Part shown: positions 8,231 to 50,135 of the stretch, piece by piece | How the letters are laid out: each line of letters opens with the position of its first letter | How positions within the stretch are numbered: the first letter of the stretch is position 1 | Assembly: GCA_026396415.1 (NCBI GenBank) | Contig: JAPLWX010000035.1 | Span: 51,381-115,380 of the forward strand | Length of the DNA stretch: 64,000 bases | Direction: 5' to 3' | From: Candidatus Micrarchaeota archaeon | GTDB taxonomy: Archaea > Micrarchaeota > Micrarchaeia > Anstonellales > Anstonellaceae | Notes under the pieces: model-generated | Told to the model about the DNA's origin: nothing | Seen by the model: only the letters and a program-made list of their open reading frames with translations | Databases searched by the model: none | Translations under genes and position numbers: made by a program

Positions 8231-8254
8231 TTACAAAATGCATGCATTTTGTAA
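8231..8254. promoter_or_regulatory. Perfect 24-bp palindrome TTACAAAATGCATGCATTTTGTAA, followed by a direct repeat of TTTTACAAAAT and a TATA-like TTTATATATT at about -30
   Basis: Read directly from the sequence. It is centred about 69 bp upstream of the ATPase ATG at 8311, and the TATA-like element lies at 8281-8290. Confidence 0.6.
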
Positions 8255-18182: not shown

Positions 18183-18198
18183 AAGCCCCCGACGAGGA
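18183..18198. repeat. att-like direct repeat AAGCCCCCGACGAGGA, identical to the tRNA-Thr 3' end region at 29877-29892
   Basis: A 16-nt exact match, read from the sequence. Confidence 0.6.
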
Positions 18199-18337
18199 GC
18201 TGCCTTTCGGTTAAACTTAAGGGGGCTACGGCGGGCAAAGCCATAACGCGAAACGACGGTTTTTTGTTGCAGAACGCCCCAAGTTTACTTGCCCCTTTTT
18301 TAATTTATCATGTAAATAATTAGAATAAGGTGGTTTT

Positions 18338-19168
18338 GTGTTCTTGTTTCAAACAAAATTTGAAGTGGTCTTTAAACCTGAATATGAACAGATGATGAAA
18401 ACCCTAAAGGATCCTAAGGCTTCATACAAAACCAAAGCAGATGCTATAGAGCAAGGTGGTTACTCAGTACTCCGAAAAGCGTTAGATGGAAACGTATATT
18501 TTGGTGAAGCAAGAGGAAAAGTCGATCTGTTTAAAGGAACAATGAGCTGCAATTTGATTGGTCTAAATTCGAATGATGCTGCAAAGGCAATTCTGAATAT
18601 TCAGAATGCAATTAACGAACCTCTTAAGTACATTGGATATGAGGCATTTGTGCAAACAGTAACAAACAAACAGGGTAAACTTGATGTTGTTTTTACTATC
18701 ACTAGCGATGTAGAAAAAAAGACAAACAGCAAGACAGCGGCAATAATATCAAGAGAAAAGATAAAGGAAAATGATTTTGTTTTGGTATATATGGCTAAAC
18801 CAGGTGGCAAAACATTGTCTGCTCGTGTTGGGCTCGAATACAAAAACGCAAATGAATTTACAGGACGTGCCCAAGATAGAGAAGAATATCGCCCGGTGAT
18901 TGCACAGTTTAAAGGGTTCGCCGCAAATGGAAATCTCTTATTCGATGTTGGTGGTAACTGGGATATACGGACTAACCTATCTAACGGAGACCTTGGCGAG
19001 ATGTATAAATTAAATGGCACCACAGTCGTAATTAATGATAAAGAAAAGATGACGGTAAGTGGAGGGAAGCTCCCTATAATAGGAACTGACGTGCTTCTCG
19101 GAACAGACAATAATGGCAAGAAAAAAGAGGTAAACATCAATAGCATTAAAGGCATTCAAATTGAATAG
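18338..19168 (+). CDS. Hypothetical protein of the integrated element (AT-rich, Lys/Asn-rich)
   Basis: 276-aa ORF whose composition differs from the host genes. There is no family match. Confidence 0.4.
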   Translation: MFLFQTKFEVVFKPEYEQMMKTLKDPKASYKTKADAIEQGGYSVLRKALDGNVYFGEARGKVDLFKGTMSCNLIGLNSNDAAKAILNIQNAINEPLKYIGYEAFVQTVTNKQGKLDVVFTITSDVEKKTNSKTAAIISREKIKENDFVLVYMAKPGGKTLSARVGLEYKNANEFTGRAQDREEYRPVIAQFKGFAANGNLLFDVGGNWDIRTNLSNGDLGEMYKLNGTTVVINDKEKMTVSGGKLPIIGTDVLLGTDNNGKKKEVNINSIKGIQIE

Positions 19169-20275
19169 ATATGTGAACCTGCTAACTACAGACAAAAAAA
19201 GGCAAAAAAAAAGAGACGTCTTAGCATACCCTAGCCTTCATCATGTGTCATTCTAACCTCACATAAAGAGCTATTACCTGGGCTTTCTCCTCGAGCTTGC
19301 AGGGTACTCCCTGCGCCTTATATTCCCCCATAAGCTGGCGCAGAGCGTCGCACTTTTGCTCGTTGTCGATGCCGGCAACGGCAGCAAGCCCATACGGCTT
19401 GCCTGAAAAAGCCCGTATTTGCTTTAGCCCCTCTGCTGCCAGCATCTCTATATCTTCCGGGGAAACTCCCCCTATTTTTTCCGATTCATCTTCTTGCATA
19501 CAATACACCTCTTTTTCCGACCACCTGCGGAGTGCGGGTGGTCTGTGGAAAAGCGCAGGGCAGGAGGAAGCCGTGAATGGTTGGGAGCTTCCTCTTCCCT
19601 GCGTGAACATTTGGCCAGACAGCAGACTTACTGCTGTCTTATAGCCTGTTTTGCGGCTCTAGGTGGTGGTTTCCTAGATGCTAGCCCGAACCTCGCCAAG
19701 CTTTTTTGTATGGTTTCCTCCCTGCTTTTTCGGTTTTTTGTTTTGTCTTTGCTCTCGCGGAAAGAGATACAGCCCATTGGTGCAAGAAAGTGGTACGTTG
19801 CTTCGCACCCAAGCCCATGCGAATCTACGCGATACAAGACATACCCTTTATACAGCAGCAGATCTGCCCACGCGAATTGTTACAGCGCAGTCGTCTTCTG
19901 TAAAGTATACTAGAAGCTCCTGCTCGTTTTCGTCTATTTTCAAGGTATCTACCTCCACTTATACGCTCTCTACCGCCTGCGGACTGGCAGTCTCCTATAG
20001 TTGGTAGCTGGCTCTCCCAGCCTCCCTGCCGCCTTTACTAGCCCCTTTCTCGCGCGGGGCAGGCGTTATTGTGGCTTGTTTTCCAAGCCGCCCTAGGGCA
20101 ACTTTCCGAAAAATTCGGAAAAAAATATGCCTATGCCCGCACGGTTTTACGGTTTAACGGTTTTACCCAGCACCCCCATTGTGCCCGCTTGCGCTAGGGA
20201 GCACAGGGTAAAAGCATAAAACCGAAATACCGCCCCACTAGGAGCAGTAAGCCTGGTTTTAGTGCCTTTAATGCC

Positions 20276-21595
20276 CTAGCCATTGCCCTCCGCTAGAGAC
20301 ACTAGCTTAACATTATCCTCGTTGCCTTCTGTAATTTTTAGCTTGCCATCTGCCACAAACTCGTCGAGCAGCTTGCGGACGTTGTTTACGCCCATGTCTA
20401 GCTTGCCCTTCACTCGCAGGGCTTCTACTAGCTTGCCTTTTGGCACCTGCCCGCCGCAGCCCAGTATAACGTCCCTTATAACCCGGAAATACTCTGCGCT
20501 TTGGCCCGCGGAGAGTGCGCGGTTGTGGTAGAGGAGCAGGTTGTTTACGGCAATAAGGTGGTTCTCCCACATGCCAAAACCAAAATCAAGCTCTTCCTGG
20601 CCCACAACAGCCTTGCCGTTTGCGGCAGCCAGCATGCCAGCAATCATAAAAATCTGGCTGTTCCTGGTTGTAAACGTCCGCATTATTTGCCAGCGCGCAT
20701 CGGTCTTTACAAAATTCCGCAAAGAATCCCGCGTTTTCGCAGCCAATTTTTTGCAAAGATTGCGGACAGCGTGCAGATCGTACTCGACAACGCGATAGCC
20801 GCCATCATTCCTTAGTGCCCCTAGGTCAATGGCATCAATCTTTTCTTTAAAGTCCTGCATAAGCTTTTGTCGATCCGCAAGAGTGGCAGCAATAAGGTCT
20901 GCCTTCTGCGCGTTAAAGTCGATAGTCTCCTGCTCCGGGACGATACGGTAAACAAGCAGCATTCGCTGGAATAACCCTTTTTCTAACAACGCGGTGTTTA
21001 TGTGCGACTCCATGTAGCTCCCTGCACAGATGGCAGTGTGCGATTGGTAGCTAAGTTTTCCCAGCGCCAGTACTTTAGTTATTATTCCTTCATCGTCTGT
21101 TGCCATCTGCAAGTTGTCCTGCAGGTTTTCAGAGTGCGGGCTGCTCTTAAGCAGGATCGAGCCTTCGTCCCAGAAAAGATAGTCTTCGCTACCGAGCAGA
21201 CCAACAATTATTTCGATTTCACCACCCGGCAGAGGCTTTATTGTGCCGAGCAGGGCTGCGTCCGTTGTCTTGGCGATATACTCTCCGCGTGCCCCGAGAT
21301 GCCGGAGCATGCTGCGAGTTGTTTTCATTGCCTCGCCCTTTCCCGAACCAGATTGCTGTATAAAGAAAAGGTGTATGCGCGGATAGTTGTATCTGCCTTG
21401 ATAGTGCAACCGAACATTTCTTTTTCCAAGCACAATACCAAGCATTTGCACGAACAGCGGAAGTGCTAGGTGCTCGTTTCCCCAGACACTCTTGCTATAA
21501 TACTGCAGCCAGATTGTGTATTGTTGCGCCACGTTTCCACCTAGTCTTTCCACATCCCAAACGTCATCCACCATATATTCACCTCTAATTTTCAC
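20276..21595 (-). CDS. Putative P-loop NTPase of the integrated element (replication or packaging-type ATPase, family unassigned)
   Basis: 439 aa with a Walker A-like FFIQQSGSGKGEAM and a plausible Walker B (LFWDEGSIL). Confidence 0.55.
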   Translation of the reverse strand: MKIRGEYMVDDVWDVERLGGNVAQQYTIWLQYYSKSVWGNEHLALPLFVQMLGIVLGKRNVRLHYQGRYNYPRIHLFFIQQSGSGKGEAMKTTRSMLRHLGARGEYIAKTTDAALLGTIKPLPGGEIEIIVGLLGSEDYLFWDEGSILLKSSPHSENLQDNLQMATDDEGIITKVLALGKLSYQSHTAICAGSYMESHINTALLEKGLFQRMLLVYRIVPEQETIDFNAQKADLIAATLADRQKLMQDFKEKIDAIDLGALRNDGGYRVVEYDLHAVRNLCKKLAAKTRDSLRNFVKTDARWQIMRTFTTRNSQIFMIAGMLAAANGKAVVGQEELDFGFGMWENHLIAVNNLLLYHNRALSAGQSAEYFRVIRDVILGCGGQVPKGKLVEALRVKGKLDMGVNNVRKLLDEFVADGKLKITEGNEDNVKLVSLAEGNG

Positions 21596-21993
21596 TAACT
21601 ACTTACTTCCTGCACCTGTCCGTTCCGGGACAGCCCTTTGCCCCAGCGCTGGGGTTTTCGCGCCCTTTATTCCGGGGCTTTTCTGGGAAAATTAGTAGGT
21701 CGTTTCCGCGACCGATTTTTCCTATACCTATCCTATGCCCAATCTTGTATATATAGTTATGTCTTCTTTTTACGTCGTAGGATTAATCAATCCTAAAAGT
21801 ATTTTGCGCAAAGCAAAGTAGGCAAACCTATGTGAAGCGCCAAGATTATTTTTTGCAAGCGAACGATCCTAAGCGTGCAACCAGCATCGATTTTCTATAC
21901 GCGAGTAGAAAAAAGAGGGCTATTTGTACTTTGGTGTAATTCTGTGTAACAATTTATTTTCTAGAACGCATTAGAACACACGGAGCGGGGCGG

Positions 21994-23334
21994 TCAAGCG
22001 CGTTGCGGCTCCTTCTTGGTGGCTTGCGGCAGGCTCTGCCAATCAAAGTTTATTTCTTTTAGCAACTGCATCGCTTCCTTGTCCTGCGGGCTGTTCGGGT
22101 CGAGGCTCTTATAGGCATTTAGCTGGTCTGCCATCGCTTGCATATACTGCTCGACCCTGTCTACGCGCAGCTGCATCCCCGCCATTGCGCTTGGTGCCTT
22201 GTTAATATAGGTATTTGTCTCGAAGTCGTAGCCGCAGCCAGTGCAGATTGCTTCGCCCAGTGGGTTTTGCCTGTGGCAGACTACGCACTCTCTGTTAACC
22301 TGTATTACAGCCTGCTCTTTTTTCTCGTAGCCATAGGTGCGCATCACTGCGCGCTTTACCTGCTCGTCTGTTATATGGCAGTAAGTTGCAGCCATCTTAG
22401 ACGTTAAAGTCCAACCCATTAATTTACATAGCAAAATCTCGTTTATACCTGGTTGCGCACCAAGCTCGGTTGCCCTGCTGTGCCGGAAGTTGTGCGGGTT
22501 CACCGATTTGGTAAAAAGCGGCACACCCATCTTCTTGCGGTAAGCATTAAGCCGCCCCACCACCATGCGAATACGCTTGGCAAGTCCGGCAGATCCTATT
22601 TGGGTAAGCGTCTGCTGCGAAACCCAAAGAGGCGCGTCGGGATCCTTGGGCAAGGGGTGCACAGCCAGCCACGCTTTTAGGTAGGCCACTGGCTCTATGC
22701 AGGTTACTAACCTCTCCCCCGTCTTGCCAGCAGGCACCTTTACCTCTATAAGCTCGACCATCTTGCGCTTGGCAGTACTGTCCTGCATCGGCTCCTCTTC
22801 TTTTACGAAGTTTAGGTTGCCTTTGCGCAGCATCTCGAATTCGCCCATGCGCATGCCCGAGTCGAAAAGCAAACTTAAAATTGCCTTGTCGAGCACGTCG
22901 CCATGCTTTAGCAGCGCCCGCATCTCCTCGCGGGATAATACTGGCTTGGCAATGCGCTTGTCTGCGCCGGATGCCCTGTGCTGCACCAGCTGCCTTATGC
23001 TCCTGTCGGCTACCTCCATGCTCCTGTCGCCCAAATGCACAAGGCAGTAAAGGCTGCCCAGGGTGCGCTTGGCACCTTTCTTTGTTTCGAACATATATTT
23101 TGCGGATCGGTTTATTTTTGCGACCGCGCTGCTTAGGTGCGCCTTGTCCCGCACCATCTCGGCTAAGCCCATTCCCGAAATAGTGGTGCAGAGGGCTAGG
23201 TCGCCAAAATACTTTAGTATGCGGACGTCGCCAATATTGTGCTCGACCGCATCTCGTGCGAAACGGAGGAAAAGTTCCTTGTCCTCCTCGGTAAAGGCGG
23301 TTTGCGACGCCAAGCGCTTTTCCCAATAAGCCAT
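21994..23334 (-). CDS. int: Tyrosine recombinase/integrase with a C-terminal zinc ribbon
   Basis: Catalytic-domain motifs NPHNFRHSRATEL and LMGWTLTSKMAATYCH (R..HxxR..Y), and a C-terminal CVVCHRQNP...CTGCGYDF. Confidence 0.85.
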   Translation of the reverse strand: MAYWEKRLASQTAFTEEDKELFLRFARDAVEHNIGDVRILKYFGDLALCTTISGMGLAEMVRDKAHLSSAVAKINRSAKYMFETKKGAKRTLGSLYCLVHLGDRSMEVADRSIRQLVQHRASGADKRIAKPVLSREEMRALLKHGDVLDKAILSLLFDSGMRMGEFEMLRKGNLNFVKEEEPMQDSTAKRKMVELIEVKVPAGKTGERLVTCIEPVAYLKAWLAVHPLPKDPDAPLWVSQQTLTQIGSAGLAKRIRMVVGRLNAYRKKMGVPLFTKSVNPHNFRHSRATELGAQPGINEILLCKLMGWTLTSKMAATYCHITDEQVKRAVMRTYGYEKKEQAVIQVNRECVVCHRQNPLGEAICTGCGYDFETNTYINKAPSAMAGMQLRVDRVEQYMQAMADQLNAYKSLDPNSPQDKEAMQLLKEINFDWQSLPQATKKEPQRA

Positions 23335-23413
23335 GTTGTAAATTATGGGCAGAAAAGGAGATAATCCTTTGGCTTTTTACCTCGTAGCAGACCAAAGTTT
23401 AACTTAAAGCTAC

Positions 23414-23425
23414 AAGCCCCCGACG
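23414..23425. repeat. Second att-like partial copy AAGCCCCCGACG of the tRNA-Thr 3' end
   Basis: A 12-nt exact match adjacent to the E1 integrase end, followed by a degenerate continuation (ttgaac shared). Confidence 0.45.
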
Positions 23426-23513
23426 CTCGTCTTGAACGGCTCAAGAAGCACCCATCTGCTTCGTCGATGACTGGTCTTGCTCAAGAGGTTTATAAGGACT
23501 GCTCTATTTCGGG

Positions 23514-23783
23514 CTAGTGAACGAAGATTATCAAAAACCCAACGACAATTGAACAATATGCCCAGCTAATCTTGTAGTATATTTGGGGCAAGGTTGTGCT
23601 GCTGCCATAGGCAAATAATCCAATAATACCCATAACCAGTCCGATGTTTGCGTACCAGACAAGCCAAGTGGCTGGATTGACCAATAAGATGGCGTACAAG
23701 TTTATGGCCAACGTGTTGGCAAATGTAGAGATTCTGCCTACAAACTGTTTTTCGACTAGATAGCCTGCAACCACTAATGACAA
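23514..23783 (-). CDS. Small membrane protein (about 3 TM helices)
   Basis: 89 aa, hydrophobic. It is the last gene of the RM plus membrane-protein string. Confidence 0.4.
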   Translation of the reverse strand: MSLVVAGYLVEKQFVGRISTFANTLAINLYAILLVNPATWLVWYANIGLVMGIIGLFAYGSSTTLPQIYYKISWAYCSIVVGFLIIFVH

Positions 23784-23844
23784 AGCAGGAAGCGTTTTGA
23801 CGAAAAAGTCTGGTAATTGAGAAACCCAAAGGTCAGAGATGTTA

Positions 23845-24729
23845 TCACCTTATTTCAGATAGACACTTCTTTATGCATGCCCTCACGCGGGTGACTTTTG
23901 CCATAAATCCAATCTGTTCCTTTGGCGGCTCAACCTCTCGTTTTGGATAATCAATTCGTAGTATCCTCGATTTGGGTATTATACGCGAAGAAGCATCGCG
24001 TGGAACGACACGGATACAATCATTTTCCCAGCGGATAAAGAAGGCTTCAAACGGCTTCTTTTGAAAATCAGTGTAGATGAAGATTTTTGGCTTTTGCTGA
24101 CATTGACCATGTATTATTGCAGTGGCTAGAAGAATAAACAACATGATTATTCCATTTGCAGCGATTGAAACTGCGTCGAAAATTCCAAACGGTGCGAGTG
24201 TGTGTGCATAACAAAGTAGCGCAAAAAGAATGAAGGCGAGTGGCGCCCACCAATAGCTCCAAACTTGAATTTGATTGTTATTCTTTAGATTGTTTTTTGC
24301 GTATTCTTCATGTTTCTCAAAAAAATCAAGGCGTTCGGCGTGGCGCTTTAGCTCCTTTTGAGTCATTTGTAGCAAGACATTGGAGAGTATAAACAGCATA
24401 AACAAGTCTAAGATAAGAAGCCAATTTCCATAAAGAAAAACAAACAGAGCAGCTAGTACTTGGCTGTCACTTGCGCCTAGTTGAGGTGGAAGTTGTAAAA
24501 GATGAAACAGAAACCTTAACAATAAGATTATAACTGCGGGCACGTAAAAAATTCGAGTAAAAAAACCAAGGCCGGTAACATAATCATTTTCTTTCGCATT
24601 GGAATAAAATGACCATTCGTCATTGATAACCTTTCCGAATAGATATAATATGAAGCCGAAAAAACCCGCTATTATCAAGATTGCCTCTTTGTATGTCTGT
24701 ACAAATGAAATAATCTCTGTGCCGTTCAT
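23845..24729 (-). CDS. Polytopic membrane protein, translationally coupled to the RM enzyme
   Basis: 294 aa with about 6 TM segments. Its ATG overlaps the RM stop in a TGATG arrangement at 24727-24731. Confidence 0.6.
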   Translation of the reverse strand: MNGTEIISFVQTYKEAILIIAGFFGFILYLFGKVINDEWSFYSNAKENDYVTGLGFFTRIFYVPAVIILLLRFLFHLLQLPPQLGASDSQVLAALFVFLYGNWLLILDLFMLFILSNVLLQMTQKELKRHAERLDFFEKHEEYAKNNLKNNNQIQVWSYWWAPLAFILFALLCYAHTLAPFGIFDAVSIAANGIIMLFILLATAIIHGQCQQKPKIFIYTDFQKKPFEAFFIRWENDCIRVVPRDASSRIIPKSRILRIDYPKREVEPPKEQIGFMAKVTRVRACIKKCLSEIR

Positions 24730-27700
24730 CAGTCAACCGCCTTCTCAATGACCTTGCGCTCTTCTGAACTTATTCCATAAAGCTCGAAGACAAGGTCATC
24801 GATTTCATCCTCAAGCTTCATGGTATCCGCATTTGCATCTTTCTTTTTGAGTTTGACTAGTTCTTTGACTGTGGAGATTATTTTTTCGGAAATTACTTCT
24901 TCAGCTTTGTTAGAGGGAAACTTAATTGGTAATTTTTCAACGTAGCCTTTGCTATAATTATAATATTTGCCTTGAACAAACGGCGATATCGCAGTAATGT
25001 ATACTCCAAGAAGTTTTGAGTTCAACAACCCCAAAAGAAGATATATGTTGATTTTTTTTGGGATAATCGCAACTGATGAGTCTGACAAATAGGCGCCAGT
25101 GTCATCAAGAGCAAATCTATTCTTTTCAGCTATCCTCGGGCAGACTATTTTTTGCTTTTCAAAAAATTCTGGTTCTCTGGCTCTCCAGAGCTCAAACCAT
25201 TCCTTATTCCACTGCATAAACCCCTTTCCATCTAGTACCCTGCCACTTAGCTTGTCCTTGAATTGAGCGAGATATTTTGCAGCACCCGGATAGAGACGCA
25301 GGTCAACTGGTGTCGCGTTTGCTTCATAAGGAAACAACAGCTCTTCGCTACAAAACGAAGCCGAGTATTTTCGAATATTTTTGCCTCGTATAACTTTTTT
25401 CAAGATGCGTTCTTCGATTTTATATGATTCGATATTCTGTTTGAGCACATAATAAATATCATCCGAACCTTCTCCACCGCAAGTAACGCCTTGCATTATT
25501 TTCTCAGTATAATTCGCAAGTGTATCGAGTTCTTTGAGCCGATTAATCAGGAAACCTTTTCCAACCGAACTTATATTCCATCCAGCGCTATTCAGAGTTT
25601 CTTGTTTTATAGTGCTGAGTTTGAAGTAATCATCATTGTATTTTATTTCAGACCACTGTCTCCGAACGATAGACAATAGTTCTTCGGGGGCTATTTCTTC
25701 TGCCTTTGATTTAAATTCAACGTAAATGAATGAACTTGGCGTGTCATTTTCAAAGATAATTATGCACGGGTAATTTGTTGCATCTGTGAATATTTTTATG
25801 TCTCCAAAGTCAGTAATCTGCTTGAGCGCGACATTCTTTTGGAGATAGTCTCGTAATGCTTCAGCATAACCAACTTTAAGAAAACGATTTTGAGTAATAT
25901 ATCCTAATTTTCCATTTTTGTTAAGCATCTTTGCTCCAAGTTCGATGAAAAGGACGTAAATGTCAAACTTTCCTTTAGCAGAAAGATAGTTCATGTAAGC
26001 CGCCATTGTCTGCTTCTGCATTTTCAATATTCCTAGCCAAGGCGGATTTCCCACCACAAAATCGTACTTCTTTTTTTTCATCTCGTCGCTCGCGTCCTTG
26101 TCCTTTGCAAGGCTTTTTCCTGTAGCGCCGTAGAAGTGCGCGAGGCTTGTCTGCTCGGTGGGCATCTCAAGCGAATCGGTTTCGTAAATCTTGAAGCGTG
26201 GAATCTTGAAGCCCCTGTTTTCCTTGACGGCTTTTGAGTAAAGGTCAATTATCTGGAAAAGCAGATTCATTTCGGTAATATTCACCGCGAACGGATTTAT
26301 GTCAAAGCCATGTACATGCATGGCAACGGAGTTTACAATCTCCTCGCACTCTTTGGGAGATAGACGCGCGTACACTTCTGGCCAGCGCTTGTTGTCGAGC
26401 GCCTCCTTCGGAGTCGCCTTTTCGAATTTCACTGCCTGCCGCGCAATCAGCCTGCGCGCGGCACGGACAAGGAAGCCACCTGAACCACAGGCAGGGTCTA
26501 TCAGGTCCTTATTCTCAATCGCCTTGGATGGGATGTAATCCACAGCGTCAAGTATGTAGTCGATAACCTCGTCAGGAGTGTAAAACTCGCCAAGTCTCTT
26601 CCTTTCATCCTTGGGCAGGTATTTCTCGTAAAGCTTGCCAAGAATGTCCCTGTCCACCTTGGCGAAGTTGAATTGGTTAAGAATCCAAAGCACACGGTTG
26701 AGTGCCCTGTCAAGTTCGCCATCGCCGCTTTCGTACCAGTCAAGCGGGTTGTCTTTTTCGTAAAAGTGCCCGTAGATGTTCTTTGCCCCGTTATAGGAAA
26801 ACTGGACAATCTGCTTGAATACGCCGGTTTCCCCAAGAATGGGCTCGGCAAGCTGCTCGCGCAGCCTTTCAATGCCTCCGTTGGATATTTTCTTGCCAAG
26901 AAGAATCTTGTCCTCGCAAATCCTGATGAAAAGCAGCCTGTTTATGAGCAGGTAGATTGATTCCTTGCAGAACACTTGCTTGTTTTCCTCTTCCTTGTCA
27001 TCAGGGCGGTTGGAGAGTGCTTTCCAAATAAAGTAACCTGAAAAGTCTGCATATTTCTTGTACTTGCCTTCCGTCTTCAGCTCATAGCGAGCTATGTCCG
27101 CAGCGTGCTTTGTGTTGTTGCCGTTCGCCTTTTTTATCTCCTCAAGCTCGCCCTTTGTCTGCTTGTACTGTGCATAACCTGCATAATATTCGTCAAAAGC
27201 TGCATAAGTGTACTGCCTCATAAGGTCATTTGAAATGTAGTTAAGCTGCTCAATGAGTCTTTCAAACCCCTTTTCTTCCGCAACATCTATTGTCGCATAA
27301 TACTCGTCGAATTTGTCGTATTTTGCCTCGCTCCAAACCTGCTCCTTGGTTATGTTACCAAGGGAGAGAATCTGCTCGGCTTCTCTAGTGGATATTTTGT
27401 CTTCCGATGCCCTCTTCGCGTCAATCATTGCCTTGAAATCCAGGTCTGCTCGAAGAAGCCTGCCCTGTTTTGTGGCTTCCCAGAGAAGGAAACGATAACC
27501 GTTGGTCAGCCCCACAAACCGAGTGGAGGTGTCCGCGTATTTGCCTGCCTGGTCGCGCCATTTCTCAGCGTCTAAGCTTTCCTTCGGACGCTTGGTTTCA
27601 ATAAGAACGGCACGAGCGCCGTTCTCATCCAGCATGGTAACATCAGTGCGGCTACGCTCGTAGCGTATGAGCTTGCTGTCAAATCCCAAGACTTCCTCGC

Positions 27701-27824
27701 AGAAAAACCTGCCAAGGCGCGGGCTGAAGTCATGTTCGAGGGTGTCTATGGTTATCTCTGAGTTTATTCTCTTGAACGCCTTGAGAACCTTTTCAGTGAA
27801 GCTGATATCTGCCTTTGGAACCAT
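24729..27824 (-). CDS. Type IIG (MmeI-like) fused restriction endonuclease plus N6-adenine methyltransferase plus target-recognition domain
   Basis: 1031 aa. The N-terminus has a PD-(D/E)xK-like TDVTMLD...VLIETKRP. Gamma-class MTase motif I (IDPACGSGGFLVRAA) precedes motif IV (FDFVVGNPPW), and about 430 aa of C-terminal TRD follow. Confidence 0.85.
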   Translation of the reverse strand: MVPKADISFTEKVLKAFKRINSEITIDTLEHDFSPRLGRFFCEEVLGFDSKLIRYERSRTDVTMLDENGARAVLIETKRPKESLDAEKWRDQAGKYADTSTRFVGLTNGYRFLLWEATKQGRLLRADLDFKAMIDAKRASEDKISTREAEQILSLGNITKEQVWSEAKYDKFDEYYATIDVAEEKGFERLIEQLNYISNDLMRQYTYAAFDEYYAGYAQYKQTKGELEEIKKANGNNTKHAADIARYELKTEGKYKKYADFSGYFIWKALSNRPDDKEEENKQVFCKESIYLLINRLLFIRICEDKILLGKKISNGGIERLREQLAEPILGETGVFKQIVQFSYNGAKNIYGHFYEKDNPLDWYESGDGELDRALNRVLWILNQFNFAKVDRDILGKLYEKYLPKDERKRLGEFYTPDEVIDYILDAVDYIPSKAIENKDLIDPACGSGGFLVRAARRLIARQAVKFEKATPKEALDNKRWPEVYARLSPKECEEIVNSVAMHVHGFDINPFAVNITEMNLLFQIIDLYSKAVKENRGFKIPRFKIYETDSLEMPTEQTSLAHFYGATGKSLAKDKDASDEMKKKKYDFVVGNPPWLGILKMQKQTMAAYMNYLSAKGKFDIYVLFIELGAKMLNKNGKLGYITQNRFLKVGYAEALRDYLQKNVALKQITDFGDIKIFTDATNYPCIIIFENDTPSSFIYVEFKSKAEEIAPEELLSIVRRQWSEIKYNDDYFKLSTIKQETLNSAGWNISSVGKGFLINRLKELDTLANYTEKIMQGVTCGGEGSDDIYYVLKQNIESYKIEERILKKVIRGKNIRKYSASFCSEELLFPYEANATPVDLRLYPGAAKYLAQFKDKLSGRVLDGKGFMQWNKEWFELWRAREPEFFEKQKIVCPRIAEKNRFALDDTGAYLSDSSVAIIPKKINIYLLLGLLNSKLLGVYITAISPFVQGKYYNYSKGYVEKLPIKFPSNKAEEVISEKIISTVKELVKLKKKDANADTMKLEDEIDDLVFELYGISSEERKVIEKAVD

Positions 27825-28071
27825 GGAACTCCCTACTGCTTTCCCATGTTCCCATTTTTAAAGCTAATTAGACGTGGATGCCGGTGGAATTTGAACAGCT
27901 TATGCGCGAGGTGTGACGCGAGGGCTTTGCCTGCGACCTCTCGCGCGGGACTATTTAAAGAAATGACGCGACTTTTGCGCGAGATTTTCAGCACTCCACC
28001 GAATAGGAACTTTATAGGATGTACCTCTAAAAATCCCTATGAATTATTGTCTGCTACTATCAGCGTATAAC

Positions 28072-28216
28072 ATTGAGCAGCTTTGAGCAGCTGCGCAGCA
28101 TTGATATACTGGAGGCGATAGCTGCTCAAATATCAACGTTTGGATAGCGTTTATCGCGCAGGAAACGGCGTTTGAGCTGCTCAAAGTTGTTTATATATGA
28201 TTGAGCAGCTCCGGCT
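28072..28216. repeat. Iteron cassette A: five copies of TTGAGCAGCT/AGCTGCTCAA in both orientations around a conserved core ACGTTTGGATAGCGTTTATCGCG...GAAACGGCGTTTGAGCTGC
   Basis: Sites at about 28075, 28084, 28131, 28175 and 28202, read directly. Confidence 0.7.
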
Positions 28217-28340
28217 TTGCGCCTGTTTCTACGCCTAATTTTTTCTGCTAGCTGGAAAAGCTTGACAGACGATGAAACTTGCGCCTATTCTGCGCCTAAA
28301 ATGGCGTTCTGGCTGCCAATTGCGCCTGATTCAAGCGAAT
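28217..28340. repeat. Five copies of a (T)TGCGCCTR motif between the two cassettes
   Basis: ttgcgcctg, acgcctaa, ttgcgcctatt, ctgcgcctaaa and ttgcgcctgatt. Confidence 0.5.
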
Positions 28341-28370
28341 CGGCTCCAGATAATATTTCTCTGCTAGTTT

Positions 28371-28518
28371 GATTGCGCAGCTTGCACGCACATGTATACT
28401 GGAGGCGCGAGCTGCGCAACCTTTAACGTTTGGATAGCGTTTATCGCGTGAGAAACGGCGTTTGAGCTGCGCAACTTCCTTTATATACGATTGCGCAGCT
28501 CTGCTAGCTGCGCAACGT
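28371..28518. repeat. Iteron cassette B: paralog of cassette A with every site changed coordinately to TTGCGCAGCT/AGCTGCGCAA
   Basis: Sites at about 28375, 28411, 28467, 28491 and 28507. The core ACGTTTGGATAGCGTTTATCGCG and GAAACGGCGTTTGAGCTGC is identical to cassette A. Confidence 0.7.
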
Positions 28519-29739
28519 TCAGAGCCGTTCCGAAAGGTTGAGCGCGACCAGCTTTCTTGCGAGAAAATCACGCGTTTCGTTGTCCTTCATCAGCTCGTTC
28601 AGAACATCGTTGCCTTTCTTGCACTCGTTTTCTATTTGGAGCGCAACTTCAAGCTGGAGAACGGTGCCGCACTTTGTGCAGAATTTGGAAGTTGGCGAAT
28701 TTGGCTGCTTGCAGCGGTGGCAATCTTTTGCGCGGAAGCTATCCTCTTTCTTTTCCTGCCCGTTTTTCAGCCCGTGGAGCTGGAGAATCGCGGAATCCAC
28801 ATCTCGCCCTGACAAATGGACATAAACCGAAGCCATTTCGCTGCTTTGGGTCCAGCCGAAATATTCCTTCATCTGCGCCTCTGTCAGTTTGTTTGCCAAA
28901 GCGGTTGCGCGCGAGTGGCGGAAGAGGTGCGGATTCACCCTTTTCTTTATCCCTGCCTTTTTTGCCAGCCTGCGAAGGAGAATGTTCGCGGTTGAGTAGT
29001 TGAAAGGGAGCAGGATTTTCCTGCTCGCCCTGGACAACCACAGCGGGCATTCTGAATCGTTTCTTTTTGGGTGGATATCGAGCCAACTGGCAAGAGAAGG
29101 GGCTGAAGCGACAATCCTGACGCGCCTGTCGCCCGTTTTGCCGCTTACCCTAAGGATTGCGCCGTAATCGTCAAAAGAGACATTCCTTATGCGAAGGGTA
29201 AGAAGCTCGGCTATTCGGCAGCCGCTTTCATAGAGGATTTGCACAAAAGCCTTGTCGCGTGGATGTTCAGCCTGCTCTGAAAGCGCCTTTACCTCCTCTT
29301 CCGTGAGAAGTTCTTCCGGCAGCTTGTGCTTGGCGTTGCGAACGCTTGCCTTTATCCATTTCACGCTTGCGGGATAGTCCTCGCCGCCGCCAAGCCATTT
29401 GTAAAAGCATTTTATTGCGACTTTGAAGTCCTTTTTGCTCCATTCGGAATACTTGCTTTGTTCGATTTTTACGACAATATCCTTTATCCGTTCCTTTTTG
29501 GCGTTCTTCAGGCCGGTTTTAATCATTCCCGAAAGCTGCGAAAGCAAAATCAGATATTTGATGTTCCTAGCTATGGAAAGTCCCCTTGACACGCCGTCCT
29601 TGTAAAAGCCAAGAATGAGCTTTTTGTCGTTTGGCGAGACGTCTTTCGTCTTTTCTAGCCAAAGGAGCTTTGCCTCTAGCGTCCGCTTCAGGTGGTGTAT
29701 ATCGAATGGTTCCATGCTGAATCCCTCTGACGAAACCAC
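28519..29739 (-). CDS. int: Tyrosine recombinase/integrase with a C-terminal zinc ribbon (paralog of 21994-23334)
   Basis: NPHLFRHSRATALA, YFGWTQSSEMASVYVH and a C-terminal CHRCKQPN...CTKCG. It is adjacent to the tRNA-Thr att site. Confidence 0.85.
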   Translation of the reverse strand: MVSSEGFSMEPFDIHHLKRTLEAKLLWLEKTKDVSPNDKKLILGFYKDGVSRGLSIARNIKYLILLSQLSGMIKTGLKNAKKERIKDIVVKIEQSKYSEWSKKDFKVAIKCFYKWLGGGEDYPASVKWIKASVRNAKHKLPEELLTEEEVKALSEQAEHPRDKAFVQILYESGCRIAELLTLRIRNVSFDDYGAILRVSGKTGDRRVRIVASAPSLASWLDIHPKRNDSECPLWLSRASRKILLPFNYSTANILLRRLAKKAGIKKRVNPHLFRHSRATALANKLTEAQMKEYFGWTQSSEMASVYVHLSGRDVDSAILQLHGLKNGQEKKEDSFRAKDCHRCKQPNSPTSKFCTKCGTVLQLEVALQIENECKKGNDVLNELMKDNETRDFLARKLVALNLSERL

Positions 29740-29877
29740 TTCATTATGCTTGGTGTATCATGCTACATTTTCATGCCATGCCAAGCTGATGCTTCTTGAG
29801 CCGGAAAAGACGCGCCTTCCCATGCGGGGCTACGAAAAAAGCCCTTTTTGGGGTGGGGAATGCTGACTGCTGTCAGA

Positions 29878-30076
29878 AGCCCCCGACGAGGATTGAACTC
29901 GTGACCTCGTGCTTTGTGGCTGGGATAAGCTTCTCTTTCTTTTCCCAGGGCTCCCGATTGTTCGGATTACCGAACAATGGGCACATTTTCCCCCTGGGAA
30001 AATGTCGTTTCTTTCTCCGCAGAAGAGAAAGAAAAGGCCTTACCATGCACGCGCTCTACCGCTGAGCTACAGGGGC
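29878..30076 (-). tRNA. tRNA-Thr (anticodon GGU) interrupted by a ~127-nt intron at the canonical 37/38 position
   Basis: Manual folding gives acceptor GCCCCUG/CGGGGGC, D arm GCUC-AGCGGUA-GAGC, anticodon stem CGUGC/GCACG with loop AUGGUAA, variable loop AGGUC and T arm ACGAG-UUCAAUC-CUCGU. The 3' exon begins at AGCACG after a hairpin-rich intron. Confidence 0.7.
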
Positions 30077-30195
30077 ATGACCAATTTGCCGCAGCAAATT
30101 GGGCATAGGTTGTGCCGCGGCACAACCGTATCGTCAAGTTGCGACAGCAACTTGGCGAGCTTCGCCAGAATCGCGCTGGCGATTTGGCGAATTTT

Positions 30196-45091: not shown

Positions 45092-47851
45092 TTATTTTTT
45101 GTCTTTCTTTTCAATTTCCTTGGAAAGGGCGGCAAGCGCAGGATTCGGGGGCGCGTCATTGCCAGCCCCTGCTGCGGGCGCCGGGTCGGCATTTTGCGCC
45201 TCGGAATATTTTTCCGAGGCCTTTTGCATGAAATCCTCCCTGCCCATGCCGCCCATCTTGTATATCTCGTAAAGCCACACCAGGTGGTCCTTTGCATACT
45301 GCTCGACAAGCGCCTCGTCCTCCTGCTTCACCTTGCGCGCCGTCTCCTCGTGCTCGAGCGTCTTGCGCAGGCTTTCCTTCGCCTGCTCGTATTCCCCGGG
45401 CTTTGGCACCTCGTCCTCGCTTTCATCGGGAAGCGGGACATCCTCCTCCTCGGCGGGCAGTGCCGCGGTGCCTGCCACTTCCTTCACTTTGCCAGCCTCA
45501 AGCCTTGCAAGCTGCTCGGCCATTTTTGCCATCTTCTGGTCCTGCAGAAGCTGCTCGGGGGTTTTTTCCGATGCCAATAGGGCTTCATCTGAAACAAGCT
45601 TCCTTGGCTTGAGAGGCGCAATGCGGGGGGAAATGCCGGCTTGCTCTGCCGCAGGCTCAATTTGCTCTGCCGCAGGCTCCTCTTGCATTTCCTTTTCCCC
45701 CTGCCCGGCACGGGGAAGCGCGATTTGCTTCCTCTCCCTCGCAGGAGGCACGTATGTTTGCGGAGTGGAAGGCAGTGTGCGCCCCATGCCGGGCAATATC
45801 CTTCGCCGCAGGGATGGAGCCTGAATGGGCGGCGCTTCCTCTTCCTGCCCTTCGCCCTCCTCGTTTTCCTCCTCGCGCGCAGCAAATTTTGGCGCAAGCT
45901 TCCTTGGCGCGGGCGGCTTCACGCCTGCCGCTTCCCTTTCCTCTTCAGGCCCTCCGGGCTCATCCGCAGGAATAACTGACGCCGGGGCTGTCTTTTCCGC
46001 CTTGGGAGCCGTTTCTGCTTTTTCTTCAGGCAATTCTTCAGCCTTGGCCTTGCTTGGCACTTTTTTCGCAGAAGCCGCCTTTTGCCTGGCTTCCGGATTG
46101 GAGCCTTCGGCGCCGCCATTGGCGGTGCCTGATGCAAAATGCCTTACATTTTGCACATCGGCCCCAATGGGCGCAGTTTTGCGCTGCAAAACTGCCGTTG
46201 GCGGTTCCTTTTCCTGCGCAGCCGCTGCTTTTTTCTTCCGCGCTCCTGCGGATTTTTTCAGGGGCTCGGGCCGGTTTTTGGATTTTTTGCCATGAGCTGC
46301 CTTTTGCGGCGCAATGGCGGCTTGTTCCGGCCCTTTTTCACCCTCGTTTCCCTCGAATGAAGCTTCCTCCCGCCTTGGCTGCGCGCGCATCTTGTCAGGG
46401 GACAATTCCTCGATTATCCTTTGGATGCGGCGCATGCGGTCCGAGTCTTCATTGCGGGATATCTCTTGCGAAGGCCCGGAAACGGCGGCATCGGGAAACA
46501 TGGGCTTTATCGTGATTGGCCCCGCTTGAGAGTCTCTCCGGGCACTGGGAATCCGCCCGTCTTTTTCTTCAGGAACGGCTTGCAGGGGCATTTGCTTTTC
46601 TTTTTCCTCTTCATCCGGCGCCGGCGCTTCCTCATCGCCCTGCGGCGAAGGTCCCCCCTCCTTATCCGGCATGGGGGCGATTTCATCTTCCACTTTGCGG
46701 AGCGGCATCCTGCGCGGGCTTTCTCCGCGAACGGGTTTGGGAATGGGTTCGAGCTCGATTTCCCCGCGCTCGCCCTCGGCAGGCCCAGGCGGCGGCAGTT
46801 TCTTATCCTTGCCGCGCGCATTTTGCAAATCGCCCGCGCCTTTGCCCTCGGCTTCTTCATCATCATGCAGGTTCCATGCATTGGGCGCGTCCACGCCCTC
46901 CTGCTGCTCCTGTCCAGGCTCCGCCCCCCCAGATTCTTCCTCTGGGGGCTGCGGCGGGGGTGTTTTGAATATGTCTGCATCTTCGCGGGCAATTTTTGCC
47001 TTTTCCTCCTCGCGGCGGAGCTTCTGCTCGATGAGCGCCTGCAGGCGGGGGGACAGCTTGGAATAGGAGGAGATTCCTGCCGGCGGCTTTTTTTCAGCCC
47101 CGGCTGGTGCGCCGGGAGATGGCACTGGCGCATTTGAATTTGAAAATGATAACGGGAGCTTGATGAGCTCGGAAGGCTCGGGCGCACCTTGCCAGGAGGG
47201 CGTTTCAATCGGCGTTTGCTGCATGGGCAAGGCGGGCGGAGCTGCCGATGGAATCCGCGGCGCGCCTGGCACCCTTGGGGGCAGCACGCGCGGCTTTGCC
47301 TGCGGCAGGGAGGGGATTTCCCCGCTATTATCAGGAGGCTTGGCAGGCTCTTCCCTTTCCGGGGAATTGGGGGCTTCACCAGGGGCAATCATGCCATCGC
47401 CTTTTGCAGGCACGCGGGAATTCGGATTCCTGATTTCGTAATCTGCCACCTCGCCAGGCGCTTGCGGCTCAGGCGCCTTCCTTTCCCGAAGCGGCTGCAG
47501 GAGGCGGGCATTTTCATCATCACGCGCCGCCTGTTCCTGCGCCGAGACGAACTTGTGGAGGTCGTTTCGCATCTGCTCCGCGGGCGTGGGAAGGCGCGCG
47601 CTTGCAGCCGTGTCTTGCTGCGCGGAAGCGATTGCATCCGCACTGAGCCGGCGCTCGATTTTCTGCGCCTCGAAAAGCAGGAAACTGTAGGTATAGTCCT
47701 CGAACTCGCGCGGGAAAATGCCGAAGTTCTCGTCAACCACGAGCTTGCCGTCAATCGGGCGCGGGGGGATGGAAAGCGGCTTTTTCCCCATATCGCGGGC
47801 AGCGGCGCAAAGCTCGGAAAATGTGGGGAATAGGTCGGTTTTTGCGCCCAT
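45092..47851 (-). CDS. Giant (919 aa) Pro/Glu/Ala/Lys-rich intrinsically disordered protein with short ordered N and C termini
   Basis: Long minus-strand ORF between the pilus ATPase and the membrane genes. Low-complexity PEE, KAE and PAP runs dominate. The N-terminal 70 aa and C-terminal 60 aa look globular. Confidence 0.55.
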   Translation of the reverse strand: MGAKTDLFPTFSELCAAARDMGKKPLSIPPRPIDGKLVVDENFGIFPREFEDYTYSFLLFEAQKIERRLSADAIASAQQDTAASARLPTPAEQMRNDLHKFVSAQEQAARDDENARLLQPLRERKAPEPQAPGEVADYEIRNPNSRVPAKGDGMIAPGEAPNSPEREEPAKPPDNSGEIPSLPQAKPRVLPPRVPGAPRIPSAAPPALPMQQTPIETPSWQGAPEPSELIKLPLSFSNSNAPVPSPGAPAGAEKKPPAGISSYSKLSPRLQALIEQKLRREEEKAKIAREDADIFKTPPPQPPEEESGGAEPGQEQQEGVDAPNAWNLHDDEEAEGKGAGDLQNARGKDKKLPPPGPAEGERGEIELEPIPKPVRGESPRRMPLRKVEDEIAPMPDKEGGPSPQGDEEAPAPDEEEKEKQMPLQAVPEEKDGRIPSARRDSQAGPITIKPMFPDAAVSGPSQEISRNEDSDRMRRIQRIIEELSPDKMRAQPRREEASFEGNEGEKGPEQAAIAPQKAAHGKKSKNRPEPLKKSAGARKKKAAAAQEKEPPTAVLQRKTAPIGADVQNVRHFASGTANGGAEGSNPEARQKAASAKKVPSKAKAEELPEEKAETAPKAEKTAPASVIPADEPGGPEEEREAAGVKPPAPRKLAPKFAAREEENEEGEGQEEEAPPIQAPSLRRRILPGMGRTLPSTPQTYVPPARERKQIALPRAGQGEKEMQEEPAAEQIEPAAEQAGISPRIAPLKPRKLVSDEALLASEKTPEQLLQDQKMAKMAEQLARLEAGKVKEVAGTAALPAEEEDVPLPDESEDEVPKPGEYEQAKESLRKTLEHEETARKVKQEDEALVEQYAKDHLVWLYEIYKMGGMGREDFMQKASEKYSEAQNADPAPAAGAGNDAPPNPALAALSKEIEKKDKK

Positions 47852-47932
47852 TGTATCAGCCGGGAAATGACTGCAGCCGCGCGTTGTGCGGCATGCCGCT
47901 CATTCTTGTGAATGACTGCGGGCTGAAAGCCC

Positions 47933-48285
47933 GCCCACTTTTTGCCCGAGGCAAAAAGGGGCCCCTTTTTCGCTGCGGCGAAAAAGTGGGCAGCTTCCGA
48001 TGAATTCGACCGAAGGCGCAAGCAGAACGTCGCAACGTTCTGCTGCGCACCAGAACGGTTCGCCGTTCTGGTCGCGCCCCGCTCCAAGGAGCGGGGTATC
48101 ATCGCCATTCGGTCGAAATATTGCCAGTTGGGCCCGCTGCAAGCAGCGGGGTATTGCCCAACTGGCAATGAATGTGCGCTTCAGGCGGGAAGCTGCTGGG
48201 TGCGCTCCTCTGCTGGCTCAAGCCAGCATCTCCGATTCGTCGCCACTGCGACGAATGGACCACTTGTCGGTGCGCCGACAAGTCG
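47933..48285. other. Array of at least 8 consecutive stable hairpins (9-14 bp stems, 3-4 nt loops including UUCG), candidate structured RNA or palindromic-element cluster
   Basis: For example CTTTTTGCC-CGA-GGCAAAAAG and CTTTTTCGC-TGCG-GCGAAAAAG nested in GCCCAC/GTGGGC, GCAGAACGT-CGCA-ACGTTCTGC, ACCAGAACGG-TTCG-CCGTTCTGGT, CCCCGCTCC-AAG-GGAGCGGGG, ATTCGTCGC-CACT-GCGACGAAT and ACTTGTCGG-TGCG-CCGACAAGT. Confidence 0.6.
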
Positions 48286-48347
48286 GTCCCGTGCACCCGC
48301 AGTCATTCGGCGGATTCGCCTTTGCGCCGCTCAGGCTTGGTCGCAGC

Positions 48348-49871
48348 CTACTCTGGCCCGTTCCAGTCGGCGTTCTTTGAGGCCATCGCCACCACGGCGT
48401 CGGGGTTCATGTAGTATTGCGATACCAGCGCCCCCACCGTGTTCACGCTCTTGTAGCCTTTCTTCACCATCCAGGAGAAAATCTTCGCCTTGTCCGACAC
48501 GTCAGAGTCTATCTCGCGCTGGGTGAGCCCGGAGTAGAGGGAAATGGTGGCCGAGAGTGAAACCATCTTCCCTACCTCGTTTATCCTGTCGCTCTTCACG
48601 TCCCAGCGGTAAAGCGAGTTGATGTCGCCGCCTTTCTGCACCTCCGCGAATTCGAGCGTGCGGCGGATGTTCAATCGCCTGTGGCGGAACTGCACCACCA
48701 CGCCTGCAAGCGCGGAGAGGGACTCGCGCGGCATCGAGATGGGGGGCGTGGTGAGCCTTGTCACAGCCTCTGCCGCGTTGTCCGCGTGCAGCGTTGCATA
48801 GACCGAATGCCCCGTGTGCATCGCCTCGAAGAGTATCTCCGCCTCGCGCTGCTTCCTCACCTCCCCGACGATTATCCTGTCGGGGCGCTGGCGCAGCGAG
48901 TTCACCAGCAGGTCGAGCATGGTTATCTCGCCCTTGCCCTCCGCGTTGGGCTCGCGCGTCACCATGGGCACCCATTGCAGGAAGGTGGGGAGCGTCAGTT
49001 CGCGCGTGTCCTCGATGGAGATGATGCGCTGGTTTGCCGGGATGAGGCAGGACATTGCATTCAGGAAGGATGTCTTTCCTGAGCCCGTGCCGCCTGCCAC
49101 CAGGAGGGACAGCTCGTTTTGCATGCAGAGCCAGATGAGGCCCGCCACCTGCGGCGAGATGCAGTTGAGCTCGATGAAGTACGGAATGGTCCAGGGGTTG
49201 CGCGAGAATTTCCTGATGGTGATGGTGTTCCCGAAGCTGGAGACCGGGAACATGGTGGCGTTCACGCGGTCGCCGGAGGAGAGATGGGCGTCCATCACGG
49301 GGTTCAGCGTGTTTATCTGCTTGCCAATCCTCCTGCCTATCATTGCCGAGATGTCGTATATCGACTCCTCGTTCTTGAGGCGCACATTCGTCTTGCACCA
49401 GCCGTATTTCTTGTGGTATACCCACACGGGCTCGGCGGAGGAATTTATCGCCACCTCTTCAAGCGCATTGTCGTGCATGAGGGGCTCCAGGTCGCCCAAT
49501 CCCAGGCTGTTCTGGAGAAGGTATGCCGTTAGCACGTGCTTGTCCGCCTCGGAAAGCGTCGGGAAGTGCTTGGAAAGCAGGAAATTCGCGCGCGCCTCGA
49601 ACTTGTTCCTCACCTCGTCGCGCTTCTTCGGGTCTATGATGTCGGTGATGTCGAGCTTCACCGTGGTGATGAGCTCGCCTTTCAGCGTGTTGAGCACCAG
49701 GCGCGTGCCCTCGGACAGCTCGCGCACGTTCACCTCGTACTGCGGCACGTATTCCCCGCTTTTCGTGAATATCTTCGCGAGCACCTGTATGCCCTCGTTG
49801 TCATATACGTATGAATCGAGCACGCCTTCCTTTTCCGGCATGCGTTTTTTCAAATCAGCCATGGGAAACAC
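48348..49871 (-). CDS. Type II/IV secretion system ATPase (FlaI/TadA/VirB11 family), archaeal pilus assembly ATPase
   Basis: Walker A VAGGTGSGKTSFLNAM, an Asp box, a Walker B and a His box (HTGHSVYATLHA). Confidence 0.9.
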   Translation of the reverse strand: MFPMADLKKRMPEKEGVLDSYVYDNEGIQVLAKIFTKSGEYVPQYEVNVRELSEGTRLVLNTLKGELITTVKLDITDIIDPKKRDEVRNKFEARANFLLSKHFPTLSEADKHVLTAYLLQNSLGLGDLEPLMHDNALEEVAINSSAEPVWVYHKKYGWCKTNVRLKNEESIYDISAMIGRRIGKQINTLNPVMDAHLSSGDRVNATMFPVSSFGNTITIRKFSRNPWTIPYFIELNCISPQVAGLIWLCMQNELSLLVAGGTGSGKTSFLNAMSCLIPANQRIISIEDTRELTLPTFLQWVPMVTREPNAEGKGEITMLDLLVNSLRQRPDRIIVGEVRKQREAEILFEAMHTGHSVYATLHADNAAEAVTRLTTPPISMPRESLSALAGVVVQFRHRRLNIRRTLEFAEVQKGGDINSLYRWDVKSDRINEVGKMVSLSATISLYSGLTQREIDSDVSDKAKIFSWMVKKGYKSVNTVGALVSQYYMNPDAVVAMASKNADWNGPE

Positions 49872-50135
49872 CCGCCGCGCCCGTGCGCGATGCTAACGCT
49901 GAAGCGATATTCGCCGGGATTGTTTAAAAGCGTTGGTGTGCGCAACGAGGGGAAATGCGCGGGCTGAAAGCCTGCAAAAGAAGCGCAGGCGCATCTTCGC
50001 GCGTGGAAAGAAAAAAGGGGAAACCGGAGGGCGCTGCTGTTGCCTTGGAATGACAAATTTCCAGAGAAATTTGTCCGCGTTGGAATATAGGAATTCCAAT
50101 ACAAAGAAAAGGAAAAGAAAGAAGGCGGGAATGGG

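Follow-up and report, generated by a model that had tools for sequence, protein, structure and literature searches.

In a 64,000-nt stretch of the genome of a Candidatus Micrarchaeota archaeon (contig JAPLWX010000035.1; hereafter, the window), the spacer between the gene of a pilus ATPase and a 919-aa low-complexity open reading frame (ORF) is occupied by a dense array of hairpins (window positions 47910-48320). We consider it likely that small mobile palindromic DNA elements make up this array, nested in a cluster similar to bacterial interspersed mosaic elements (BIMEs) that expanded recently in an operon spacer of one Micrarchaeota lineage. As units, single hairpins of about 20 nt would be combined with a double-hairpin element of about 55-60 nt. 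Compared with five close relatives, the block is inserted DNA; its units are present at unrelated loci, two insertions of such units are visible, and its stems are strand-symmetric and Watson-Crick paired. Among the papers searched, we found no description of hairpin arrays in Micrarchaeota or other DPANN archaea.

A tRNA with a long intron, together with the relatives of the ATPase, marks the source of the window as a member of the Micrarchaeota (DPANN). The window ATPase is 85% identical to those of the best GTDB species representatives and 93-97% identical to its counterparts on metagenome contigs. In an alignment with five such close relatives (L085-L089), only 45-95 nt separate the ATPase stop of the relatives from the conserved region in which the next gene starts (GGCTGATACAATG; GGCTGATACAATGGGCGCAAAA), compared with a spacer of 496 nt in the window. 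The alignment places a block of about 415 nt without counterpart at 47913-48328 (bounds ± ~5 nt), between GCGGCGCA and (C)ATTCACAAG. No counterpart of the array was found in these five relatives, all of which cross the ATPase/ORF junction, nor at the same position in about 160 more distant loci. Likewise, no hairpin cluster lies downstream of the ATPase gene in L001-L018 or L085-L093, and the gaps of more distant relatives (20-170 nt) are hairpin-free at this position. Because the spacers of the relatives are short and hairpin-free, the array is a young, lineage-specific insertion and not as a conserved part of the pilus operon. Both array ends are 100% identical in independent Logan assemblies of two other sequencing runs (L081 and L084); thus, the array sequence is real and not an assembly artefact. 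Short-read contigs terminate within hairpin arrays in L081 (1-77), L084 (11516-11738), and L048 (11239-11809), and such arrays are likely either under-represented in Micrarchaeota metagenome-assembled genomes (MAGs) or responsible for splitting their contigs.

When perfect stems of 7 bp or more with 3-7-nt loops were sought, 11 local hairpins emerged within 47918-48283; their stems measure 7-10 bp and their loops 3-4 nt. About 0.15 hairpins per 410 nt are expected by chance, based on a first-order Markov simulation of the whole window (23 per 64 kb). The window as a whole is also enriched, with 59 perfect hairpins relative to the 23 expected and, for stems of at least 8 bp, 32 relative to 6; the latter are mostly intergenic, with a few located in coding sequence. 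The array hairpins start at 47918 (stem GCGGGCT, loop GAA), 47938 (CTTTTTGCC, CGA), 47953 (AAAAAGG, GGCC), 47965 (CTTTTTCGC, TGCG), 48021 (AGCAGAACGT, CGCA), 48049 (ACCAGAACGG, TTCG), 48077 (CCCCGCTC, CAAG), 48133 (CCCGCTG, CAAG), 48211 (TGCTGGC, TCAA), 48235 (ATTCGTCGC, CACT), and 48262 (ACTTGTCGG, TGCG). Every hairpin listed in the original prediction lies where it was said to be, and the nesting and the look-alike pairs that it described are real. The look-alike hairpins adjoin one another and make larger palindromes.

A higher level of organization had escaped that first reading. Five long-range helices are nested in the array, namely a perfect 13-bp outer stem and four inner ones that are perfect or near-perfect, and each inner helix surrounds one to three small hairpins. 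The 13-bp stem closes the whole array (left arm 47910-47922, GAATGACTGCGGG; right arm 48296-48308, CCCGCAGTCATTC). Domain 1 (47933-47991) is the double-hairpin element, a member of a dispersed family, in which GCCCAC and GTGGGC enclose the hairpin CTTTTTGCC-CGA-GGCAAAAAG, the linker GGGGCCCC, and the hairpin CTTTTTCGC-TGCG-GCGAAAAAG; it can also be described as CTTTTTCGC-loop-GCGAAAAAGG..CCCCTTTTTGCC-loop-GGCAAAAAG. A perfect 9-bp helix (47990-47998/48188-48196) then contains domains 2 and 3. Domain 2 (48005-48117), closed by a 14-bp stem (48005-48018/48103-48117), carries hairpins hp3 (48021-48044), hp4 (48049-48072), and hp5 (48076-48097). Domain 3 (48119-48170) has a perfect stem of 14-15 bp, ATTGCCAGTTGGGC/GCCCAACTGGCAAT (48119-48133/48156-48170), and its loop holds a copy of the hp5-type unit (CCCGCTGCAAGCAGCGGGGTAT) including the GTAT flank, so that a 22-nt direct repeat, 91% identical, is formed with 48078-48099. 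Domain 4 (48198-48298) comprises an 8-bp stem (48198-48205/48291-48298) around hairpins at 48211-48228, 48235-48256, and 48257-48289. A small terminal hairpin, GGCG-AATC-CGCC (48309-48320), still lies within the inserted block.

The units of the array are not confined to it. We retrieved related loci L165, L167, and L168 through purA. A covariance model of the double-hairpin element (R1; three copies, with the window copy on both strands) scored 84 bits at window positions 47933-47991, 82 bits at L167 6629-6692, 76 bits at L165 5441-5508, 61 bits at L168 3291-3352, and 42 bits at L088 4258-4317. On the hp9/hp10 pair of the array itself (48229-48292), the score was 36 bits. The element has 5-6 copies in about 115 kb of three related genomes, at sites that include the tRNA-Thr leader of L165, another spacer in L167, and the gene of a DHH phosphoesterase in L168; variants lie within L088 4258-4367. 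Single hairpins recur as well. The hp3 core GAACGTCGCAACGTTC (16 nt including the loop) is identical to a tRNA-leader hairpin of L167, the hp4 core GAACGG..CCGTTC matches leader hairpins of L165 and L168, and stems with GAACG or AAATTTC recur in the related genomes. One AAATTTC stem belongs to a hairpin pair in the window spacer upstream of the ATPase gene (50052-50099), with recurrences at L088 6074 and in the L168 leader.

At two of these sites the insertion itself can be read. In L168 (3291-3352), a 54-nt double-hairpin element interrupts the DHH phosphoesterase gene in frame, immediately after the catalytic DHH motif, and adds 18 aa (PHFAAQNGAPFSQGEKER) that are missing from three orthologues (window, L165, and L167). 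Such an in-frame palindrome with presence and absence among orthologues is what characterizes Rickettsia palindromic elements (RPEs), a likeness that concerns the unit family and not the array at 47.9 kb. In L165, the double-hairpin element sits inside the loop of leader hairpin D, which yields a long-range stem around two hairpins. This is exactly the pattern by which the array is built, to judge from the sequence, and the copy of hp5 in the loop of domain 3 follows it too. These results support the cluster of miniature palindromic elements that the original prediction had kept as its second choice, in that the units recur at unrelated loci and a second array is found at tRNA-Thr (see below). 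That prediction had also held that a generic, genome-wide REP-like repeat (REP, repetitive extragenic palindrome) would refute its preferred RNA. To a large extent this is what we found, because the double-hairpin module and the GAACG hairpins recur elsewhere, including as an in-frame gene insertion.

An inserted block that carries perfect 13-bp inverted repeats at both ends could instead be one miniature inverted-repeat transposable element (MITE) of ~400 nt, transposed in one piece. MITEs are likewise small, noncoding, and located in spacers, with inverted-repeat ends; an operon need not be destroyed by their insertion (the Chunjie example, PMC10969869), and a high MITE density has been reported in some DPANN genomes (PMC11602168). 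We nevertheless regard this explanation as barely credible. There is no target-site duplication: the block flanks differ, and the sole flanking direct repeat (14 nt; 47895-47908/48326-48339) is already present in the array-less relatives. Neither a second copy of the block nor one of its termini was found in the window and 2.1 Mb of related loci. By blastn the whole array recurs there only as the same locus in two other assemblies, and an exact match to the terminal 13-mer occurs nowhere else in the window. Two array segments compared with viral contigs gave no exact matches. The repeated entities here are subunits of 20-60 nt, not the 400-nt block, whose interior is a mosaic of units with separate relatives, and no relation to a known insertion sequence is seen. 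Finally, the closing-stem arm at 47910-47922 finishes, on the minus strand, in CATTC. Because the array-less relatives also have CATTC, the terminal inverted repeat partly copies older sequence and reaches beyond the inserted DNA.

The same CATTC is what one would expect if one closing-stem arm had been copied from the other, as in a purely local origin of the array through fold-back or template-switch replication errors and tandem duplication in the spacer, with no mobile element involved. Template switching is documented as a process that creates hairpins and keeps them paired (PMC8794818), and the perfect Watson-Crick stems and the adjacency of the look-alike hairpins are consistent with it. 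However, three genomes together carry the double-hairpin sequence at no fewer than four unrelated loci, among them a clean in-frame insertion of 54 nt in a conserved gene, and an hp5-type unit was copied with its GTAT flank into the loop of another hairpin. An exclusively local origin is therefore quite unlikely in our view. Local template switching may still contribute to the upkeep and extension of the cluster, and to that extent this explanation overlaps with the mobile-element cluster that we prefer.

The original prediction favored a structured RNA, and the fold of the array is indeed extreme. For 47852-48347, the predicted energy reaches -296.5 kcal/mol (plus strand) and -282.7 kcal/mol (minus strand); the z-score is -15.4 in either case. 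For 47910-48320 alone, the minimum free energy (MFE) is about -260 kcal/mol, relative to a mean of -137 ± 22 kcal/mol for random 411-nt segments of the window. Folding as single-stranded DNA with DNA energy parameters gave a similar score (z = -15.3). A functional structured RNA within the operon transcript, selected for its fold as a stabilizer, insulator, or attenuator or as the 5′ leader of the 919-aa ORF, would account for this stability, for the proper nesting of the five long-range helices, and for the finding that all differences between look-alike hairpins are compensated. T5 tracts are present on both strands of domain 1, and such a tract is an archaeal termination signal. The genome is annotated as encoding exosome subunits, and stable 3′ hairpins would block the exosome. 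In L012, L030, and L095, too, an array is located shortly before a giant ORF.

The signature of the array is, however, that of a DNA palindrome. No more than 6 of 160 pairs in the plus-strand fold (3.8%) and none of 153 in the minus-strand fold are G-U, whereas the share is 11% in control segments (n = 39, same window; P = 8e-4 for the plus strand and 2e-8 for the minus strand). The z-score is the same on both strands, and the marginally better-folding strand is antisense to the flanking genes. A strand-specific RNA signature, consisting of G-U pairs and one better-folding strand, is thus not seen in the array; comparable arrays elsewhere in Micrarchaeota have 0-10% G-U pairs and an inconsistent strand bias. 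The low G-U content and the strand symmetry therefore point to DNA palindromes and not to an RNA under selection on one strand. The four look-alike pairs of the array differ by eight two-sided pair changes and no one-sided change, and four copies of the CTTTTTCGC hairpin of the double-hairpin element have identical 9-bp stems and four differing loops. Such a pairing pattern is expected from either selection or DNA-level conversion of the arms. We favor a DNA-level process because G-U intermediates are nearly absent.

Database searches agree. At the gathering threshold, the array belongs to no Rfam 15 family (best match, sbcD RNA at 28.7 bits against a threshold of 40), and, at gathering as well as permissive thresholds, only tRNA was identified in the window with its array and in 15 related loci. 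Matches to sbcD and microRNA families fell under the threshold and were rejected. A scan with sigma-70 promoter and intrinsic-terminator models, which are ill-suited to archaea, found nothing above chance. Given also the absence of the array from the five relatives and the more distant loci, the occurrence of its units at unrelated sites including a coding sequence, and the chance that the association with giant ORFs only mirrors sampling around the pilus ATPase, we judge a selected operon RNA to be unlikely, and the preference of the original prediction is not supported. Fold energy alone is insufficient ground for annotating such arrays as noncoding RNA genes.

A second array in the window consists of four hairpins that fill the spacer between purA and tRNA-Thr and thus the 5′ leader of the tRNA (30077-30190, minus strand). 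Leader hairpins are present at matching positions in L165, L167, and L168; their sequences differ among the four genomes, and all are Watson-Crick paired save one imperfect stem in L165. The tRNA-Thr(GGU) gene itself (29878-30076, minus strand) contains a 130-nt intron (29913-30042, minus strand) at the canonical anticodon-loop position, composed of three perfect hairpins. This intron-containing tRNA was detected by Rfam and missed by ARAGORN. Since L168 has an intron of only 37 nt, and those of L165 and L167 are about 101 nt long, the intron has grown by the addition of hairpins.

Several observations weigh against the mobile-element cluster. The four leader hairpins hold their position at a purA identity of only 80-89%, with compensated stem differences, a pattern that selection on a functional structure would also give. 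The five nested long-range helices of the main array look more organized than a random pile of repeats. For most of the 11 array hairpins, no relative was detected elsewhere in the 2.1 Mb examined, and a Pfam scan of the ~40 larger window ORFs turned up no Y1/RAYT (IS200/IS605-like) transposase. Because the leader hairpins persist at such purA divergence, we allow for a functional role of some arrays; these four, for example, may have been co-opted as RNA 3′-end or processing elements.

Among known systems, REPs and BIMEs, RPEs, and organellar double-hairpin or palindromic repeats come closest. With 11 hairpin units of 17-24 nt each, the spacer resembles REPs and BIMEs, short extragenic palindromes of 20-40 nt, which also combine conserved stems with variable loops, cluster in intergenic and intercistronic operon spacers, and vary in presence between close relatives; when transcribed, REP/BIME copies form stable hairpins that can stabilize the upstream message. 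In contrast to REP/BIME, several small families occur here with no single genome-wide consensus visible, the stems are perfect rather than imperfect, the units are nested in the loops of one another instead of being juxtaposed in alternating orientation, the scanned window ORFs yielded no RAYT transposase, and the host is archaeal. Published mentions of REP-like palindromes in archaea are confined to general terms (PMC12306157). RPEs share the character of palindromic selfish elements in the reduced genome of a host-dependent organism, and protein-coding genes survive their in-frame insertion (PMC10969869). They are, however, about 100-150 bp long with a conserved encoded peptide, whereas the units here are 20-60 nt, and the two would not be expected to be related in sequence. 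A dispersed unit of two adjacent short hairpins is also known from the double-hairpin elements, GC clusters, and palindromic repeats of fungal, Volvox, and other mitochondria and plastids, which colonize intergenic DNA and introns, inflate spacers, and have been interpreted as selfish DNA (PMC2670323, PMC7218506). Those elements reside in eukaryotic organelle genomes and have a strong family consensus, whereas here a DPANN chromosome carries more diverse units.

Other identities for the array were considered and rejected. A CRISPR array would require a repeat-spacer periodicity that is missing, and for an integron attC array there are no cassettes. The region is GC-rich and has no nearby orc/cdc6, which does not suit a replication origin. 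A group II intron, a retron, and a TnpB/IscB omega-RNA were dismissed in the absence of an Rfam match and of a reverse transcriptase or nuclease ORF, a C/D box sRNA for want of box motifs, and an archaeal bulge-helix-bulge intron because the closing stem does not show that geometry in the MFE fold.

Across 2 Mb of loci from Micrarchaeota and Aenigmatarchaeota, we counted about ten similar clusters. Common to them are an AT-rich outer stem, a GC-rich inner stem, and a loop of 3-4 nt, often with a long-range closing stem. Two arrays in L030 (5352-5580 and 12348-12640) bracket the pilus locus of another Micrarchaeota MAG. Two adjacent hairpins are present as inverted copies in both (TGCGCAAC.. 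/ TCGCCAAC..), which demonstrates exchange between two arrays separated by 7 kb. The location of arrays upstream of giant ORFs in the window, L012, L030, and L095 was discarded as a pattern, as it probably reflects sampling bias; all loci were fetched around the pilus ATPase. As a separate observation, the low-GC Micrarchaeota loci L043 (2340-2440) and L066 (3480-3560) share an intergenic two-hairpin element with compensated stem differences, TGTC..GAACGN-loop-NCGTTC..ATGATCAAG..hairpin..TGACA. In L066 it is followed by an ORF starting MVIRAYKFRLYPNKEQ, which encodes a putative TnpB-type protein.

The genes on either side of the main array are those given in the original prediction, which also stated rightly that they do not explain it. 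Upstream lies the gene of the type II/IV secretion-family (pilus) ATPase (48348-49871, minus strand; PF00437 T2SSE, E = 5.6e-39), and downstream lies the 919-aa ORF (45092-47851, minus strand; no Pfam match), after which two T2SSF membrane-protein genes come next. In this ORF, about 100 aa at the N terminus and about 190 aa at the C terminus are well conserved. The center is hypervariable, with abundant Pro, Glu, Ala, and Lys and numerous indels, and is highly divergent even among close relatives, whose counterparts range from 884 to 1002 aa. Within an indel-rich segment, two perfect hairpins of 9-10 bp (46133-46195) are translated in frame as QNVRHFA and AVLQRKTA and are probably RPE-like in-frame insertions. 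A GGCTGAT before the ORF start is a possible Shine-Dalgarno-like motif. Because this motif precedes the start and the two genes are almost contiguous in the relatives, the array is probably carried in a polycistronic RNA.

Three further features of the window and its relatives were recorded. A probable integrated element of about 11.7 kb (18183-29892) carries a tyrosine integrase gene (28519-29739, minus strand) that abuts the 3′ end of tRNA-Thr, and a 16-nt direct repeat of the tRNA 3′ end (AAGCCCCCGACGAGGA) marks both ends (18183-18198 and 29877-29892). Its GC content falls to 0.38-0.49, and among its cargo are an Eco57I/MmeI-like restriction-modification fusion (24729-27824) and a second integrase (21994-23334), along with a weak match to DUF3987. 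Just past tRNA-Thr in L165 (about 5620-5740), a ~75-nt block with two perfect hairpins is flanked by the duplicated tRNA 3′ end (ATCCTCGTCGGGGGCT); this block may be a tiny insertion or what remains of an att duplication. A perfect palindrome of 24 nt, TTACAAAATG-CATG-CATTTTGTAA, stands isolated at 8231-8254, just within the start listed for an AAA_14/DUF4143 ATPase ORF; from its sequence, it could be an operator-like site.

For the BIME-like cluster that we favor, the following course of events can be proposed. New units would preferentially land in unpaired DNA such as hairpin loops and spacers, and repeated insertion together with local duplication would produce the Russian-doll nesting of the long-range stems. 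A DNA-level process would keep the arms complementary while the loops mutate freely; candidates are template switching, quasi-palindrome correction, and a hairpin-specific enzyme acting in trans. The operon RNA would then carry the block as a very stable, closed structure of 400 nt with T5 tracts. In this model, the array RNA could plausibly shield the ATPase message from 3′-to-5′ decay or attenuate read-through into the 919-aa ORF. Any such effect is probably a side effect and not the reason for the existence of the array.

We also suggest, tentatively and with somewhat more doubt than conviction, that the units form a new class of very small archaeal mobile palindromes in Micrarchaeota. The targets of such elements would be single-stranded, namely the loops of hairpins, the leaders and introns of tRNAs, the spacers of operons, and protein genes, which they would enter in frame. 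They would build self-nested structures of hundreds of nucleotides, and a hairpin-specific DNA mechanism would keep their stems perfectly Watson-Crick but leave the loops free to vary.

DPANN archaea have very small, gene-dense genomes, and 400 nt of noncoding palindromes inside a DPANN operon are unexpected. Short-read assemblies break at the arrays, as in two independent contigs whose ends fall within this one, and this matters for the quality of MAGs. If the units are mobile, they would provide a natural case for how perfect hairpins arise and persist, through template switching or through selection, and a parallel to the palindromic elements of Rickettsia and of organelles. If that parallel is true, reduced, host-dependent genomes in all domains would be prone to invasion by hairpin elements, including in-frame insertion into proteins and the growth of tRNA introns.

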